A DNA stretch of 64,000 nucleotides from Myxococcales bacterium (GTDB taxonomy: Bacteria > Myxococcota_A > UBA9042): positions 3,626 to 67,625 of the forward strand of contig JAGSHB010000007.1 of NCBI GenBank assembly GCA_023954815.1. The letters are read 5' to 3'. Position 1 is the stretch's first letter. Every line of letters starts with the position of its first letter. Both the position numbers and the translations under genes were made by a program. A model generated the notes under the pieces. That model ran no database searches, was not told the DNA's origin, and saw nothing but the letters and a program-made list of their open reading frames with translations. Below, in pieces: positions 1 to 7,916 of the stretch.

Positions 1-1167
1 AAGCCCCCGTTCATCAGGCGAACGGCCCTTCAAGTCATTGCGATAGTGATCATCCCACACCGTCCAACCCATGTCCGCTAGCTGTGCGGGCCGATAGCCG
101 CCCAAACTCCACGGCTCAGCGATCAGCAACGCATCGGGGCGAATGGCCGTGGCGACGGCGCGAATCTCGCGGAGCGTCTCGTCGTCGATCAACTCAGCGA
201 GGTCGAAGCGCAAGCCATCGACGCCGATCTCTGCGAACCAACGCCGCACACTGGCGACCACCAGCGCGCGCATCTCTGCGGCGCTGGTATTGAGATCGTT
301 GCCGCAGCCACTATGCGAGCGGTAGCCGCCGTCTTGGTCGCGATGAAACCAGTCGCCCGGATCGAGGAGCAACAAGGGGTTCTGGTCGTGCGCGGAGACG
401 TGATTGTAGACGACGTCGAGAATGACCCCGAGCCCTTGCGCGTGGAGGGCGGTAACCAGATCACGCAACTGCGCCGCAGGGTCATCGAAGACACCGTTGT
501 CGTCGACGCCGACCCACGCGCCACGCTCCGCGGCCGCCCACGCCGGCGTGTAGCGCGCGCTGGCAGCGAGAAGGTAGCTCGGCATGTAGCCCCAGTGATT
601 CGTTCGATCGCCCTCAAACACGGGCCAGGAGGTCACCGGCAGCAGCTCAACTGTGTCCGCACCAAGGGCTCGGACGTGGTGTGAACCGCCGATCGCCGCT
701 GCATGTTGCTCGGCAAACCCGGCGTAGGTCCCCGGGGCGGTCGTGCCAGCGCTAGCGTGGGCGGTTGCGTCGCTGAGGTGAACTTCGATGATCACTGCGG
801 CGTCTCGGTCGATGGTCACGCCAGTGCCAGTGGGGTGAAGCGGTGGAGTAGCGACCGACCAAGTGGGATGGCCCGCTGTCTTGCGACGCACGACCGCCCG
901 AGACCACGGATCTGCGACCGTCACCGTGCCCCAACGGTGGTGAACACGAAACCGATAATACCCCAGCGGAACTGGTACATCCGCCCGCCAAACGCCGCGA
1001 TCGCCCGGCGCCAGCCGCATCGTGGTTAGGCGCTGTGGTTCAGCGTTTGGGTGCCGACGCTCGACCAGCTCCACGTGGTCGGCTTTGGGCGCACAGAGAC
1101 GGAAGCAACCCTCGGAGGCACACCATCCCAACGGGCTGCGAACGGCGGAGCTGTGGTCCCTGCTCAT
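1..1167 (-). CDS. GH13 glycogen debranching enzyme / pullulanase-isoamylase family (3' end runs off the window)
   Basis: Not in the ORF track. Manual translation of the minus strand from ATG 1167 (ATGA overlap with the glgB stop) is open to base 1. It shows VELLPV, NHWGYMPSYLLA, LDVVYNH, SGCGNDL, DGLRFDLA (nucleophile) and IAEPW (acid/base). Confidence 0.9.
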   Translation of the reverse strand, partial: MSRDHSSAVRSPLGWCASEGCFRLCAPKADHVELVERRHPNAEPQRLTTMRLAPGDRGVWRADVPVPLGYYRFRVHHRWGTVTVADPWSRAVVRRKTAGHPTWSVATPPLHPTGTGVTIDRDAAVIIEVHLSDATAHASAGTTAPGTYAGFAEQHAAAIGGSHHVRALGADTVELLPVTSWPVFEGDRTNHWGYMPSYLLAASARYTPAWAAAERGAWVGVDDNGVFDDPAAQLRDLVTALHAQGLGVILDVVYNHVSAHDQNPLLLLDPGDWFHRDQDGGYRSHSGCGNDLNTSAAEMRALVVASVRRWFAEIGVDGLRFDLAELIDDETLREIRAVATAIRPDALLIAEPWSLGGYRPAQLADMGWTVWDDHYRNDLKGRSPDERGL

Positions 1168-3056
1168 GCGCGCCCCAGTACGAGGACGCTGTACGCAGGG
1201 ACGTCCAATAAAATACCGACGTTGTCCCCATGTGGGCCCGATGGCATCGGGGGGCGTGCTTTGGCGGTGCTGCCATCGAAGTCGCTGCTGTGCAGAAGCA
1301 CCCGCCAAGACCCAGACGTCGGCAGAACGTACCCCTCGCGAGGGACGTCGGCGGCGTTGACAATCACCAATAGAGAGTCGGCTTCGGCGTCAGGTTCAGC
1401 CATGCTGTGGCGGGAAAATGCGTAGATGGAGTGGGCTGCATCGTCCGCATCGACCCACGAGAAACGGCGGGTATCGTGGTCGCCGCCAACCAATGCTGGG
1501 TGACTTCTGTAGAGTCGATTGAGCGCTGCGAGCCAGTCTTCAAGGGATTTTCGCGGCTTTTCTGCTGCTTGGCCCCAGGGGATCTCACCGTCAAAATCCC
1601 ACTCCCGCTCCTGACCGAACTCGCAGCCCATGAACACCAGCTTCTTGCCTGGCGACAACCATTGCAGCCCATAAAGCACGCGTAATTGCGCCAGACCCGT
1701 TCGCCAGTCGCCGCCCATTTTTCGGACCAGACTCCCCTTGCCGTGCACAACCTCGTCGTGGCTCAGCGGCAGCACAAAGGCCTCGGCGTCGGCATAGGAC
1801 GACGAAAACGTCAGCTCGTGGTGGTGCCAGCGGCGATGCTCCGGTGCGCGCGAGAAATAGGACAGCGAGTCGTGCATCCAGCCCATGTTCCACTTCAGCG
1901 AAAACCCAAGGCCCGCATCCTGAGGCGCAAGCGGTGGCACCGGGTCGCCCGTGACGGCAGCAAACGCGGTCGACTCTTCGGCGATGGTCACCACCCCTGG
2001 GTAGGTCTGACGCACGACACGGTTGAGATCTTGCAAGAAGCTGATGGCGTCCAGGTTCTCTCGCCCGCCGAAGCGGTTGGGCAACCACTGGCCGGCCTCG
2101 CGGCTGTAGTCGAGGTAGAGCATGGAGGCGACCGCGTCGACCCGCAGCCCGTCGATATGAAACGACTCGATCCAATGGCACGCGCTCGCCAACAGGAAGC
2201 TGCGCACCTCGGGTCTGGCGTAGTCAAAGACCAGCGTGCCCCAGTCCGGATGCTCGCCGAGTCTGGGATCTGCGTACTCAAATAGGGGGGCGCCATCGAA
2301 CTGCGCGAGCGCGTGAGCGTCCTTTGGAAAGTGTGCGGGCACCCAGTCCATAATGACGCCGATGCCTGCCTGATGCAGCCGATCGATGAGGTAGCGCAGG
2401 TCATCGGGGTTGCCATAGCGCGACGTCGGCGCAAAGAACCCGGTCACTTGGTAGCCCCAGCTCGGGTCGTAGGGATACTCGGCGAGCGGCAGGAACTCGA
2501 CATGGGTAAACCCGAGCCTCATCACATGAGCCACAAGCCGATCCGCGACCTCCCGATAGCCCCAGGATCGGCCATCCCCGTGACGCAGCCAAGATCCCAA
2601 GTGGACCTCGTAGATGCTCATCGGCTGCTGATGATCGTCGCCTTTTCGCGCGGCCAACCAATGACCGTCGCCAAAGATGTGTCGCGCGTGGCCGACCAAA
2701 CGCGATGCAGTCCCCGGCCGTAGCTCCGAGGCAAACGCAAAGGGATCGGAGCGTTCTGCCCACTGGCCGCTCAGGTCGCGAACGGCGAGTTTGTAGAGCT
2801 GCCCAGCTTGCGCTTGCTCAATGTGACCGACAAAGCAATCGCCGTCCCGAGTCAGCGCCTCGCCCTGCCAAGCCGAAAAGTCGCCTTTGACCTGAATTTC
2901 CTGGGCTCTCGGCGCCCAAACAGCGAAGTGAAAGCCACCATCTGGGTGCGGATGCGCCCCCAACCAACGCCACGCATCAAACCCCATGGCCGCGTGGAAG
3001 CGCTCGCGTAACGCTTGCACCTCGGTTGACGACAAAGCTGTGGCGTCTGGCAACAT
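1164..3056 (-). CDS. glgB: 1,4-alpha-glucan branching enzyme
   Basis: Motifs FAVWAPRA, IYEVHLGSW, WGYQVTG, DWVPAHF, DGLRVDAVASMLY, IAEEST, LSHDEVVHGK. Start placed at ATG 3056, which has a GGAGGG RBS. Confidence 0.96.
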   Translation of the reverse strand: MLPDATALSSTEVQALRERFHAAMGFDAWRWLGAHPHPDGGFHFAVWAPRAQEIQVKGDFSAWQGEALTRDGDCFVGHIEQAQAGQLYKLAVRDLSGQWAERSDPFAFASELRPGTASRLVGHARHIFGDGHWLAARKGDDHQQPMSIYEVHLGSWLRHGDGRSWGYREVADRLVAHVMRLGFTHVEFLPLAEYPYDPSWGYQVTGFFAPTSRYGNPDDLRYLIDRLHQAGIGVIMDWVPAHFPKDAHALAQFDGAPLFEYADPRLGEHPDWGTLVFDYARPEVRSFLLASACHWIESFHIDGLRVDAVASMLYLDYSREAGQWLPNRFGGRENLDAISFLQDLNRVVRQTYPGVVTIAEESTAFAAVTGDPVPPLAPQDAGLGFSLKWNMGWMHDSLSYFSRAPEHRRWHHHELTFSSSYADAEAFVLPLSHDEVVHGKGSLVRKMGGDWRTGLAQLRVLYGLQWLSPGKKLVFMGCEFGQEREWDFDGEIPWGQAAEKPRKSLEDWLAALNRLYRSHPALVGGDHDTRRFSWVDADDAAHSIYAFSRHSMAEPDAEADSLLVIVNAADVPREGYVLPTSGSWRVLLHSSDFDGSTAKARPPMPSGPHGDNVGILLDVPAYSVLVLGRA

Positions 3057-3166
3057 CTTCCCTCCGAGGCGGGAAGGTAGCGCCTGACAACTCACAGCGA
3101 AACCGAGATGACACTGGCCTGCTGCGTATCGCCCAACAGACCTTACCGCCCCACCAACTGGAGTTG

Positions 3167-4258
3167 ATGATGACCCACCGCTGGCGAACCCTGCTTGGCA
3201 TCCTGCTGACGAGCCCCCTGATTGCGTGCGCAGAGGAGCCGTCGCCGGCCTATGAGCCAGTCCCGATGCCATTTCATCCGCTAGCAGATGCGCTTGTGCA
3301 CGTAGGGGACGAGGCGATCACCCTGCCCCTGACGACGGCCACGGTCAGCGGTCACGTCGCGATCGGTGACCTGACCGCATGCACGCCTGAGCTCACGATC
3401 CGAACAACCGGCACATCTGACACCTGCGCCCTGACCCTGACCGCGAGCAAGCAAAAAGACAGCCTCGGCCTAGCGATCACAGGGGCGACCCTTGTCGCTC
3501 GCAATCAATCGGGTGTCTGTGCGCCGCTGGCCGCTCGTTTACCGAACGGGACAGCCGACGTGGTCTATGAACTGGCCGGTGGCGACGCTTGGCTGCCCTG
3601 GGTAGAACCCAAGGAACTGAGCGCTGTGGATGGCGTGCTTGCGGTGGATAAGGTGTTGCTCGCCCTAAAGGGGACCCTCAAGCTAGTCGCCGGATCCGAT
3701 GCGTTGCAGATGCGAGATTTGAGTCTGCAGCTCGGTGGCGATATCGAGCTGACCATCGACGACAAGGTGACCTGCGCGCCCTGCACAAGCCCTGACTGCC
3801 AGAGTCCCTACCCGACCATGAGACTGCGCGATGCGCAGCCCAAGAGCGTGGCTCACAACCTGAAGTACAGCCTAGATCGGTGGCTTGGTCAGTACTTGGT
3901 GGTGATTTTGACGCAGGGATGGTGAACGAGCTGCCGGGCCCAGGCTGGGTCCTTCGATAAGATGCACAAAGAACTCACAGCCAGCGGCTACGACGTCGCC
4001 TTCGTGGGTGCGCACGGCAAGAGCGCAGACAGTCTCTCAGAGCAAAAGGCGATCTACGAGCGCATGGGCTATGCCTTGTTGCAGGAGCGAGATGAGGCGA
4101 GCCTACGAGACGTCTGGCAGACGAAAAATCGCCACGATATCTTCGTATTCGACCCAGCCGGCGGGCTCGTTGCGCAGATCCACGACACAAAGAACGCCAT
4201 GACGCCCGACGGCTACGCCAAGTTGCGGGCCAAGCTGCTTACACTCCTAAAAAAGTGA
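3167..4258 (+). CDS. Putative selenoprotein: lipoprotein with N-terminal 4-Cys domain and C-terminal UxxC thioredoxin-fold (redoxin) domain; TGA 3923-3925 read as Sec
   Basis: Lipobox LIAC. ORF 3026-3925 and ORF 3962-4258 are in the same frame, separated only by TGA. The read-through GW-U-TSC aligns with GW-C-ASC of 4404-5579. A hairpin lies just downstream of the TGA. Confidence 0.8.
3926..3955 (+). promoter_or_regulatory. Candidate bacterial SECIS element
   Basis: GGGCCCA-GGC-TGGGTCC stem-loop (3936-3952) with a G-initiated loop about 18 nt 3' of the UGA. Confidence 0.6.
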
Positions 4259-4403
4259 GTGTAGAGGCGCGAGCGTGACCTGGAAATTTACCAGATGTGC
4301 CCAATAGTTGCAGATGTATGCTGATCAACGCAGACCAATATGGTAGGGTCTTCGGGTCAAAAATATCACGTCACTGATCGGGCGTGTGGCAGCAGGAGAG
4401 ACG

Positions 4404-5579
4404 ATGAACACGGCACGGAATTTGGCACTGGCCCTCACTGCTCTGGCAGCGATGATGATGGCTGGATGCGGCGCAGAAGGCGGCGGAGCAGCGACGACAC
4501 CGCTCACCGCGACCGGCACGTTCACCGCAGGTATCGACAACAGTGAGTACACTGTCGACTACGCGGGCGCACAGGTCACGGCCGAGCTGCAGCACAAACT
4601 CACCAAGGAAGGGCAGTACGCTTGCGTCCCCTCGGTGAAGATCTCGATCACACCCAAGCACAGCGACGCAGACGACAAGTCCTGCGGGCTCGATCTGGAG
4701 TTCAAAGCTGACTTCAACGGTGAGTTGAAGCTCAAGAAAGCCAAGTTCTACGCCAAGAGCGCCATCTTCCAGGACGGCGTCGCGATTATGACCTTCCCGT
4801 GTGAGGGCTGGGCGAAAGAGCCCGCCAGCGGCGAGGTGGTCTACGAGAGTCTCGACGGCGCCGAGGGTTCGCTCAGCATGAAGCCCATCGCGCAGCCCCA
4901 AGCTGGACAGGCCAAGGCGGTGCTCAGCAGCACAGCGCTGTCGCCCAAAGGCATCGTCGACATGAAGTTCAAGGGTCGGAAGTTCAAGCTCGATCTCAGC
5001 CAGATCAAGGTCAATGGTTCGGTGACCAGCGCAGGTTCGGAGGACGTCTCCTGTGCGCAGAAGTACCAGCCGCTGCCGTTCGTGGAGCTCAAGGACATCA
5101 ACCCGGGCAGCCCGCTGCACAATCAGACCTACTCGCTGGAAGAGTTCAAGGGCAAGTACGTGGCCGTGCTCATGGGCGCTGGCTGGTGCGCTTCTTGCCT
5201 GAGCCAGACCGACTACATGCAGAAGATCAAGACCGATCTTGAGGCCCAGGGTCGCAAGGATTTCGCGATGGTCGTGATGAACGACAAGACTGCGGCAAAG
5301 CCCAACGACCAGAAGAAGATTTCGACCTGCAATACCAAAGGCAAGTGCACGATTGGTGAGAACGTGCAGTTCACTGTGTTCCAGGCTGATGGGACGTACG
5401 GGTGGAGCTCGTTTACCGACCCCAAAACCGGACAGAAAGGCAAGAAAAACGATTGCTTCATCTATGCCCCTGATGGCCGCTTCATCTTCAAGCACATCGG
5501 CAAGGGCACGGTGCAACTCGGCCAGTTCGACTCGGAAGTTCGGGCTGCGCTCAACACCAAGATCGAAGACATCCCTTAG
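4404..5579 (+). CDS. Lipoprotein with N-terminal 4-Cys domain and C-terminal CxxC redoxin (TlpA/AhpC-like fold)
   Basis: AGGAGA RBS, lipobox MAGC, GWCASC motif. Paralogue of 3167-4258 and 21694-22911. Confidence 0.85.
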   Translation: MNTARNLALALTALAAMMMAGCGAEGGGAATTPLTATGTFTAGIDNSEYTVDYAGAQVTAELQHKLTKEGQYACVPSVKISITPKHSDADDKSCGLDLEFKADFNGELKLKKAKFYAKSAIFQDGVAIMTFPCEGWAKEPASGEVVYESLDGAEGSLSMKPIAQPQAGQAKAVLSSTALSPKGIVDMKFKGRKFKLDLSQIKVNGSVTSAGSEDVSCAQKYQPLPFVELKDINPGSPLHNQTYSLEEFKGKYVAVLMGAGWCASCLSQTDYMQKIKTDLEAQGRKDFAMVVMNDKTAAKPNDQKKISTCNTKGKCTIGENVQFTVFQADGTYGWSSFTDPKTGQKGKKNDCFIYAPDGRFIFKHIGKGTVQLGQFDSEVRAALNTKIEDIP

Positions 5580-5722: not shown

Positions 5723-6091
5723 ATGCTCGTCAGTCGCTCGGTTGTTGGCCTACTTTTGCTTGCAGCGCTATCGGTGATGCCAGGGTGCAGCACCGACGGA
5801 GGCGAGGGCGACCTGCCGCTCGATCGACCCTCGCAAATCGCCGCGCTGACGGCGAATTTAGCAGCGGGCGCAGCGAGCTACGAGACCAACTGTCTGGTAT
5901 GTCATGCCAAGGACGGAAAAGGCGACTCAGGGCCCAACTTGGTCTCGGGCACCGCCGCTGCGCTGCCAACCAAAGCCATGGCCAGCGTCATTCTCAACGG
6001 CAAGGGCTCCATGGGCGCCTACGACTCGCTGACCAACCAAGAGGTCGCCGACATCATTGGCCACGTGATGACCACGCTCGCGGGCAACTAG
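5723..6091 (+). CDS. Monoheme c-type cytochrome lipoprotein
   Basis: CLVCH heme motif, GPNL, distal Met in GSMGAY, lipobox MPGC. Confidence 0.9.
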   Translation: MLVSRSVVGLLLLAALSVMPGCSTDGGEGDLPLDRPSQIAALTANLAAGAASYETNCLVCHAKDGKGDSGPNLVSGTAAALPTKAMASVILNGKGSMGAYDSLTNQEVADIIGHVMTTLAGN

Positions 6092-6131: not shown

Positions 6132-7916
6132 ATGCCCATTCGTGGTGCGTACCGTGAATTGACCGCCGCTGCCCTCATCTTGGGCATCATCCAGGGCGTC
6201 ATCATGACGGCGGCCTTTGTCTACATCGGCCTCAAGCTCGGGTTTGGCCTGTCCGGCTCCACCGTCGCCGCCATCATGGGCTTTGTGCTGCTGCGCGGGG
6301 TGATGGGCAAGGGCACGCTGGTCGAAAACAACCTCAATCAGACCATCGCATCGGGCATCAACACCGCCTCGGCTGGCGTGGTGTTTACCCTGCCCGCCTT
6401 GCTACTGATGAGCGTCAAACGCCCAGAGCTCGGCGACTTTGACCTGTGGCCCATGCTGCTCGCGGCTGTGGCGGGCTCATTCATGGGCATCGTGGTCATC
6501 ATCCCGTTGCGCAAGCAGTTTATCGAGCTCGACCGGCTGCGTTTCCCGTCGGGTATTGCGGTTGCGAGCATCCTGAAATCCCCTGGTGAAGGCGCGGTGA
6601 AGGCGCAGCTGCTCGTCGCAGGCTCATTGTTGGCCGCGGTGGGCACCATCTTGGTCAACCTCGGCATCATCCCGTCAGCTATCGATCTGAACGGCGCGTT
6701 TGGCATCCCCACGTGGTTCCCTCTGGCGATCAGTGTCAGCTTTGCAAACTTGGGCGCCGGGCTCCTGAGCGGTCGCGGCGGCCTGCCGTTCTTTCTTGGC
6801 GGCGCCTTGGCTTGGTGGGTCATCTCCCCGGTCATCACGCACGTGGGGTGGCTGCCATCGCCTGTGAACGCACCAACCGAAGCGGCGGTCTTCGCGCAGC
6901 AGAAGTTGACCATGTACGGCGAGATGATTCGCCCGCTCGGTATCGGCATGCTCATCGGTGGTGCGCTGGCTGGGGTGGTCGCCTCCTATCCTGCGCTCAA
7001 AGCGGCGCTGCGGAGCCTCTCCGTGGCCGCACAGACCGGCACTGCGGGCGGCGGCGCTGAAGAACTCTCGCCGAAAGTGCTCTACATGGGCCTCGGCGGC
7101 AGCGTGGTCGCGCTATTTTGCGCCAGCCTGCTCAGTGACCCAGGTATCGGTGTCGGCACGGCGTTGGTCATGGCGGGGGCTGGCACACTCTGGCTCGGAC
7201 TCGCTGGCCTCATTGTGGCCCAGGCCACCGGTGCCACGGACATCTCGCCGCTCTCGGGGCTGGCACTCATCGCGGTCACGCTGCTGTTTGCGATCACCGG
7301 CGGCAACATCGTCGCCTCGATTCTCATTGGCCTGACGATCTGCATCGCCTCGAACCAGTGCGCGGACATGATGAGCGACCTAAAGACCGGTCACCTCGTC
7401 GGTTCACGCCCCCGGGCACAACAGCTCGCTCAGCTGACAGTCGCCTGGGTCGGCCCGCTGGTGGCCATCGCGGTCATGTTCTTGTTGTGGCGCCAAGGTG
7501 GTGACTTGGGCGGCTTTGGCCCCCAGAGCCAGGCGTGTTTGGACGCCGCTCCCGGTTGTCTGCCCGCGCCCCAGGCCGGTGCGCTGCAGGCCATGGTCGA
7601 ATCGCTGGAAAGTGGCAAAGCCCCGCTCGATAAATACGCAGCGGGCGCGGTCCTCGGAGGCGCCCTCAGCGCGTTCCCCATCGGCGGGTTGGGCGTGCTG
7701 GTTGGCTTGGCCATGTACCTGCCCTTCGACATCACGTTTGGTTACGGCATCGGCTGTGTGGCGAGCATGGGTCTGCAAAAAGGCAAGGGTGTCAACTGGA
7801 TCGGTGATCGCCTGGTCCCCATCGCCGCTGGATTCATCATCGGCGAGGCGTTGACCAACCTGACGTGGGCGATGCTGCAAATGACAGGCGTGGTCGGCGC
7901 CGGCGGAGGTCACTGA
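6132..7916 (+). CDS. OPT/YSL family oligopeptide transporter
   Basis: Multi-TM protein with YIGLKLG, ENNLNQTIAS, LRFPSGIAVA, MSDLKTGHLVG..PRAQQLAQ and LPAPQA motifs. Confidence 0.92.
   Translation: MPIRGAYRELTAAALILGIIQGVIMTAAFVYIGLKLGFGLSGSTVAAIMGFVLLRGVMGKGTLVENNLNQTIASGINTASAGVVFTLPALLLMSVKRPELGDFDLWPMLLAAVAGSFMGIVVIIPLRKQFIELDRLRFPSGIAVASILKSPGEGAVKAQLLVAGSLLAAVGTILVNLGIIPSAIDLNGAFGIPTWFPLAISVSFANLGAGLLSGRGGLPFFLGGALAWWVISPVITHVGWLPSPVNAPTEAAVFAQQKLTMYGEMIRPLGIGMLIGGALAGVVASYPALKAALRSLSVAAQTGTAGGGAEELSPKVLYMGLGGSVVALFCASLLSDPGIGVGTALVMAGAGTLWLGLAGLIVAQATGATDISPLSGLALIAVTLLFAITGGNIVASILIGLTICIASNQCADMMSDLKTGHLVGSRPRAQQLAQLTVAWVGPLVAIAVMFLLWRQGGDLGGFGPQSQACLDAAPGCLPAPQAGALQAMVESLESGKAPLDKYAAGAVLGGALSAFPIGGLGVLVGLAMYLPFDITFGYGIGCVASMGLQKGKGVNWIGDRLVPIAAGFIIGEALTNLTWAMLQMTGVVGAGGGH

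Follow-up and report, generated by a model that had tools for sequence, protein, structure and literature searches.

A predicted SECIS hairpin behind an in-frame UGA in a thioredoxin-fold lipoprotein gene of a Myxococcales bacterium

The locus and its predicted product

The window, by which we mean the whole stretch of 64,000 nucleotides that was analysed, carries a predicted selenoprotein gene with a GlgB-like branching enzyme gene upstream and, downstream, the genes for a cysteine-containing paralogue, a small c-type cytochrome and a transporter of the OPT family (Table 1). Two ATG codons, at 3167 and 3170, could serve as the start of the selenoprotein gene, with GGAG 4-7 nt upstream; counted from ATG 3170, and with the internal TGA read as U, the gene has 363 codons. 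This TGA is in frame both with ORF 3026..3925, which ends there, and with ORF 3962..4258. Translation through it yields the active-site stretch VVILTQGW-U-TSC-RAQAGSF, and the residues that follow VVILTQGW-U-TSC are RAQAGSFDKMHK.

In the translated product a signal peptide, whose lipobox reads L-I-A-C, is combined with an N-terminal domain of some 200 aa; the C-terminal domain has a thioredoxin fold. The C-terminal part (residues 231-333) matches the Pfam family PF00578, AhpC/TSA, at 29.9 bits against a cut-off of 26, while PF04592 (SelP_N, 23.1 bits) and PF08534 (Redoxin) give weaker matches. For the N-terminal domain (window 3170-3800) there is no Pfam match; a domain of this kind is also present in the Cys paralogue. 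The signal peptides and lipoboxes at the start of the two proteins (LIAC in the Sec protein and MAGC in the paralogue) were read by eye. Translated in full, the gene would give a lipoprotein that is exported and has U-T-S-C as the active site of its thioredoxin fold.

The Sec protein and the Cys paralogue share 25% identity over 225 residues, with U252 aligned to the first Cys of the paralogue's CxxC, and the similarity runs on in frame for about 80 residues past the TGA.

Table 1. Features of the locus in the window, and further predicted selenocysteine genes of the host genome (G000; C numbers are contigs).
Feature	Position	Strand	Remarks
GlgB-like branching enzyme	1164-3056	opposite strand	upstream of the selenoprotein gene
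Predicted selenoprotein gene	3167/3170..4258	+	one frame across the TGA; stop TGA 4256-4258
In-frame UGA, predicted selenocysteine codon U252	3923-3925	+	first position of the U-T-S-C redox motif
TGC, resolving Cys of UxxC	3932-3934	+	T16 and G17, its first two bases, invariant in alignment A1
Hairpin, 5' arm GGGCCCA	3936-3942	+	
Hairpin, apical loop GGC	3943-3945	+	predicted SelB contact; pentaloop A-GGC-U 3942-3946 if the closing A-U is open
Hairpin, 3' arm UGGGUCC	3946-3952	+	
Cys paralogue, lipoprotein	4404..5579	+	GW-C-AS-C motif, TGC at 5187; without hairpin; internal negative control
Small c-type cytochrome	5723-6091		PF13442, CxxCH, possible lipobox; directly downstream of the Sec/Cys lipoprotein pair
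OPT-family transporter	6132-7916		downstream of the Sec/Cys lipoprotein pair, after the c-type cytochrome
selD	G000 C154:15282-16220	-	hairpin UUGCGGGUC-GGA-GACCU(C)GCAA, 18 nt from UGA to loop
FdhA-like 943-codon ORF	G000 C39:4714	+	CAAT-U-HAPTVAGL; hairpin GUCGCCG-GUC-UGGUGAC, 19 nt from UGA to loop
Bcp/Prx	G000 C65:40360	-	FYPKAQTSG-U-TLE; hairpin GUCGCGG-GUU-CCGCGAC, 17 nt from UGA to loop
Three further UxxC thioredoxin-fold genes	G000 C124:21301, C187:48759, C240:5877		in-frame TGA, same SECIS apex

Anatomy of the hairpin

Ten nucleotides after the UGA, and inside the coding sequence, lies a hairpin of 17 nt, GGGCCCAGGCUGGGUCC, whose bulge-free stem consists of seven pairs, six of them Watson-Crick and one G-U. 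The first-pass annotation, made from the sequence alone, had proposed a GGGCCCA/TGGGTCC stem closed by a GGC loop that begins with G about 18 nt past the UGA. Arms and loop are indeed where it placed them, and the spacing between the A of the UGA and the first loop G is 17 nt (3926-3942). It had also suggested an additional GAA/TTC pairing below the stem. That pairing exists in the window, but it is not conserved: across homologues the share of paired cells is 70%, and of its pairs one never varies while another is open in 35 of the 63 sequences. The 17-mer alone has a ΔG of -10.1 kcal/mol, or -11.5 kcal/mol when evaluated in context, and in a 100-nt context the pair probability is about 0.84. 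The same annotation had stated that the Cys paralogue has no equivalent stem from 5187 onward, and this is correct: the same register sets TGAGCCA opposite CGACTAC.

Chance expectation

Does the single sequence, then, say anything about function? The fold of a 61-nt segment is no better than that of dinucleotide shuffles (z = +0.62), and an equally stable overall fold is reached by 31% of synonymous recodings. Single-sequence thermodynamics was accordingly rejected as proof of function, being powerless in a genome of 63% G+C. The hairpin itself is nevertheless no accident: when TSCRAQAGSFDK is recoded synonymously with the codon usage of the genome, only 0.1% of the recodings keep all seven pairs in register.

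In the host genome, a metagenome-assembled genome of an uncultured myxobacterium (6.4 Mb, 97% complete, 63% G+C), 901 TGA sites with frames open on both sides fit a loose bSECIS-like hairpin rule. Since there are about 20,300 open TGA sites in the genome, counted under slightly laxer frame criteria than the 901 matches, roughly one open site in twenty matches. Nearly all of these matches lie in spurious off-frame ORFs, and the loose scan, uninformative without filters for frame or composition, was discarded as evidence. Stricter scans recovered the four UxxC genes together with FdhA and Prx. The genome has 91 hairpins that combine an A-G[GU][CU]-U triloop with a stem of 7 bp or more, and six of them have a TGA exactly 17 nt upstream, where 1.3 would be expected. 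Four of the six are the UxxC redoxin genes; the remaining two lie in closed frames and were set aside as chance matches.

Conservation and covariation among homologues

A six-frame search with the protein, run on 81 related genomes, found UGA-bearing homologues in 44 of them, which are Myxococcota. The 66 homologues extracted, which amount to 63 distinct sequences, include three full-length orthologues (L018, L019 and L020), the first of which is 53% identical to the protein of the window. Every one of the 66 keeps TGA at the U252 column, where the paralogue and seven Cys homologues (W-C-x-x-C) have the first Cys of their CxxC.

Every one of them also has a hairpin after the UGA, and in 65 of the 66 it stands in the same register with the same 17-nt spacing. 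The apex in these 65 reads CCCA-GG(C/U)-UGGG or is a compensated variant of it (UCCA/UGGA, CUCA/UGAG, GCCA/UGGC or GCGCA/UGCGU). Over all 66 sequences the loop is G-G/U-C/U. Its first base, G27, is invariant over the 63 distinct ones, L034 included, and A26 and U30 on either side of the loop vary hardly or not at all. RNAalifold found the same helix independently, and it left A26 and U30 unpaired, so that the loop becomes AGGCU. These homologues are paralogues and orthologues of a single family, and their identical apexes are therefore inherited and do not count as independent events.

Covariation was computed on the ungapped codon alignment against 500 shuffles. Paired cells make up 88.5%; the shuffles give 73.5%, and sliding the 3' partner by 1-3 columns leaves no more than 50%. 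Six of the 8 pairs have changed on both sides, and five stem pairs have done so and remained paired. There are 67 cells with changes on both sides; the shuffle mean is 16, and none of the 500 shuffles reached the observed value. Twenty further pair types occur, a number reached by one shuffle in 500. Individual sequences illustrate the point: where the window has GGG opposite UCC, L019 has UCG opposite CGA, and in L020 a C-to-G change is matched by a G-to-C change. The outcome that the first-pass annotation had named as fatal to its proposal, namely TGA-bearing orthologues without the hairpin, was looked for in this set; the three full-length orthologues and 62 more sequences keep the register with compensatory changes.

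The one exception in register is L034 (G040:C532, about 160 nt into the match), in which the hairpin lies some 8 nt further downstream and the Q-A-G register is lost. Its hairpin, GGCCUCUA-GGC-UAGAGGCC, has an 8-bp stem 25 nt from the UGA and the same A-GGC-U apex.

The codons and residues beneath the stem are constrained as well. The Ala at +7 is encoded by GCT in 54 of 55 cases (GCT makes up 14% of Ala codons genome-wide), the Gly at +8 by GGG in 53 of 60 (16% genome-wide, GGC accounting for 56%) and the Ser at +5 by TCC in 44 of 47 (17% genome-wide). Outside the stem, codon choice is free. Neither the stem nor the A-G residues of Q-A-G occur in the seven Cys homologues or in the neighbouring paralogue; six of the seven homologues keep the Gln at +6. 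Since the Cys forms have no stem and retain only the Gln of Q-A-G, the SECIS appears to impose both the residues A-G and the choice of codons on the Sec forms.

Selenocysteine machinery and other selenoprotein genes

The host genome encodes a tRNA-Sec with the anticodon UCA (78.5 bits), together with selA (480 bits), selB (278 bits) and selD (397 bits), all of them above the curated cut-offs. The selD gene has an in-frame TGA of its own. In this gene, as in those for the FdhA-like and Bcp/Prx proteins, the in-frame TGA is followed by a hairpin of 7-9 bp with a G-first triloop at a distance of 17-19 nt (Table 1). The three further UxxC genes of the genome have the motifs W-U-SFC-VSQAG, twice, and Y-U-PTC-AFQVG, once. 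Several related genomes have 4-7 UGA copies of the UxxC gene, seven being the maximum (for example in G008 and G010).

Over the 81 related genomes, tRNA-Sec was found in 39 of the 44 that have the UGA form, as against 23 of the 37 that do not (Fisher p = 0.008). Of the five UGA-bearing genomes in which tRNA-Sec was not detected, three have a completeness of 67-80%, but the other two reach 91% and 95%, which means that missing sequence cannot account for every exception.

Comparison with known SECIS elements and selenoproteins

The bSECIS model of Zhang and Gladyshev (bSECISearch), as restated in the legend to Fig. 2 of PMC13188914, describes an upper stem of 4-16 bp that carries an apical loop of 3-9 nt. 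A G occupies the first or second loop position, or both, mostly as N1-G-[G|U]-N-N2 with N1 and N2 paired. According to the same legend, the UGA and the apical loop are 16-37 nt apart, the minimum free energy is at most -7.5 kcal/mol and the element lies inside the ORF directly after the UGA. The hairpin of the window falls within all of these limits: it is located in the ORF, it has a loop of 3 nt (or 5 nt), a stem of 7 bp, G-G at the start of the loop and a spacing of 17 nt, and its free energy is -10.1 kcal/mol. There is no essential difference from the model, although the loop, at 3 nt, or 5 with the A-U open, is at the small end of the range and no lower stem that extends back as far as the UGA is conserved here.

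A narrower likeness, to the apex of the E. coli fdhF SECIS, had been put forward in the first-pass annotation. That apex reads CAG-GU-CUG, against CAG-G-CUG here, and the resemblance stands only in part. The minimal fdhF SECIS is described in PMC8659212, which cites Liu et al. 1998, as an upper stem-loop of 17 nt at a distance of 11 nt from the UGA, with a bulged U17 and with G23 and U24 in the loop. Like it, the hairpin of the window is 17 nt long, begins 10 nt from the UGA and opens its loop with G. Unlike it, our hairpin has no bulged U in the 5' arm, its loop is GGC rather than GGUC and it has no conserved lower helix. Because a bulged U like U17 of fdhF is missing, the contacts of SelB are not simply transferable from E. 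coli. The loop is GGC and no lower helix is conserved, and it is doubtful that E. coli SelB would recognise the hairpin.

As for the protein, it fits, by its sequence, the class of Prx-like thiol:disulfide oxidoreductase selenoproteins, whose activity is predicted. This class (PF00578, with UxxC or UxxU) is catalogued in PMC9312934 and PMC13188914, has been a predicted class since 2005-2008 and is known only by prediction (PMC9312934); the 'Prx-like 1/2/3' proteins of the GOS survey (PMC2398784) belong to the same class. The protein of the window shares with it the thioredoxin fold, a PF00578 match above the cut-off, Sec as the first residue of UxxC and Cys homologues in the same genomes. It differs in its lipoprotein signal, in the N-terminal domain of some 200 aa without a Pfam match and in its tandem Cys paralogue. 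It is, moreover, part of an expansion in Myxococcota in which the SECIS apex is almost invariant.

Interpretation

We propose that the hairpin (3936-3952) serves the UGA at 3923-3925 as a bacterial SECIS element, and we put the probability of this reading at roughly 93%. The earlier suggestion of a SECIS-like hairpin is thus borne out by conservation, by compensatory changes, by the presence of the selenocysteine machinery and by the fit to the bSECIS model. What identifies the hairpin as a SECIS is that it is conserved and covaries together with the UGA and is absent from the Cys homologues; the comparison is decisive here, and the single sequence is not.

In the mechanism that we envisage, the G-G-C apex on its 7-bp stem would be bound by the C-terminal winged-helix part of the host SelB. 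SelB, carrying Sec-tRNA(Sec) and GTP, would in this way tether the ternary complex at the A site as the ribosome nears the UGA, which would then be read as selenocysteine and not as a stop.

The alternative that survives best, though we consider it quite improbable, is that the conserved CCCAGGCUGGG reflects a need of the protein for S-Q-A-G, or some other role of the RNA, for example in mRNA stability or in pausing ribosomes to allow folding or export, and does not form a SECIS that binds SelB. The retention of the Gln at +6 in six of the seven Cys homologues does indicate that part of the motif is a constraint on the protein. Ala at +7 and Gly at +8, however, are kept only in the UGA forms, with their codons fixed to the rare GCT and GGG, and the residues on either side of the apex change together in ways that preserve Watson-Crick pairing. 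L034, moreover, has rebuilt the same A-GGC-U apex elsewhere, and the spacing, loop and stem agree with the SECIS model as well as with the other, unrelated Sec genes that the genome carries.

It could be argued instead that the TGA is a real stop in a split or decaying gene and that the hairpin is a by-product of G+C-rich coding sequence, a reading to which we assign a still smaller probability. ORF callers do break the gene in two (3026..3925 and 3962..4258), the fold of the single sequence is no better than that of shuffles, and the loose hairpin rule is matched by 901 open TGA sites, or about one in twenty. Against a stop speak the alignment of the TGA with the catalytic Cys of CxxC and the in-frame similarity to the paralogue for some 80 residues beyond it, as well as the retention of the TGA column and the downstream hairpin in 66 homologues from 44 genomes, the covariation, the frozen synonymous sites and the full Sec machinery.

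Low-level read-through of UGA exists in bacteria. That the UGA is decoded in some such manner without selenocysteine, as Trp or Cys by near-cognate read-through or under a reassigned code, has nothing specific in its favour beyond that general phenomenon and strikes us as the least credible reading of all, since TGA serves this same gene, like many ORFs of the window, as its ordinary stop, tRNA-Sec, selA, selB and selD are all present in the genome, and the position is that of a redox Cys, the classic site of Sec/Cys exchange (PMC9312934).

With the SECIS reading preferred, it is tempting to go further, although we would hold the following proposal only tentatively and well short of even odds. 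The gene may belong to a Myxococcota-specific, multi-copy family of UxxC redoxins whose near-frozen apex, CCCA-GGY-UGGG, dictates S/A-Q-A-G after the active site. The copy in the window would be the Sec half of a pair of envelope lipoproteins, one Sec and one Cys, encoded in tandem and sharing the N-terminal domain, and together with the adjacent c-type cytochrome the pair could form an extracytoplasmic, selenium-dependent redox relay, while the frozen and bulge-free apex might point to a recognition of RNA by SelB unlike that of E. coli.

The findings leave our knowledge of Sec decoding unchanged, the hairpin being an ordinary example of a known SECIS type. For annotation, they mean that the two 'hypothetical' ORFs, 3026..3925 and 3962..4258, are to be replaced by one predicted selenoprotein gene, and the same correction applies to dozens of genes of uncultured Myxococcota, as gene callers stop at UGA. 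The homologues also constitute a natural data set of 63 distinct covarying sequences, with one relocated hairpin and matched Cys controls, which shows how a predicted SECIS inside a coding region can constrain codon choice and amino acids past the active site and which could be used for training predictors of bacterial selenoproteins.

Distribution

A search of Rfam returned no family for positions 3700-4300 even at E <= 10, which is to be expected, as a bSECIS of this type is absent from Rfam.

The pattern TGA-N6-TGY-N4-CCCAGGCTGGG was scanned against 185,579 species genomes, and at least 118 stretches matched. About 50 of the matches listed have a redoxin context, and the titles of almost all of them name Myxococcota, Myxococcales, Polyangia, Kofleriaceae or Deltaproteobacteria; the remaining redoxin-context matches listed have titles that are uninformative or evidently mislabelled. 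Matches listed from other phyla lie in closed or nonsense frames and were dismissed as chance.

One further sequence, L140 (CAZLMW010000020.1), is titled 'uncultured Enterobacteriaceae bacterium', yet its content matches G010:C20, from a genome of the window's family (Myxococcota). This metagenome-assembled genome is probably mislabelled.
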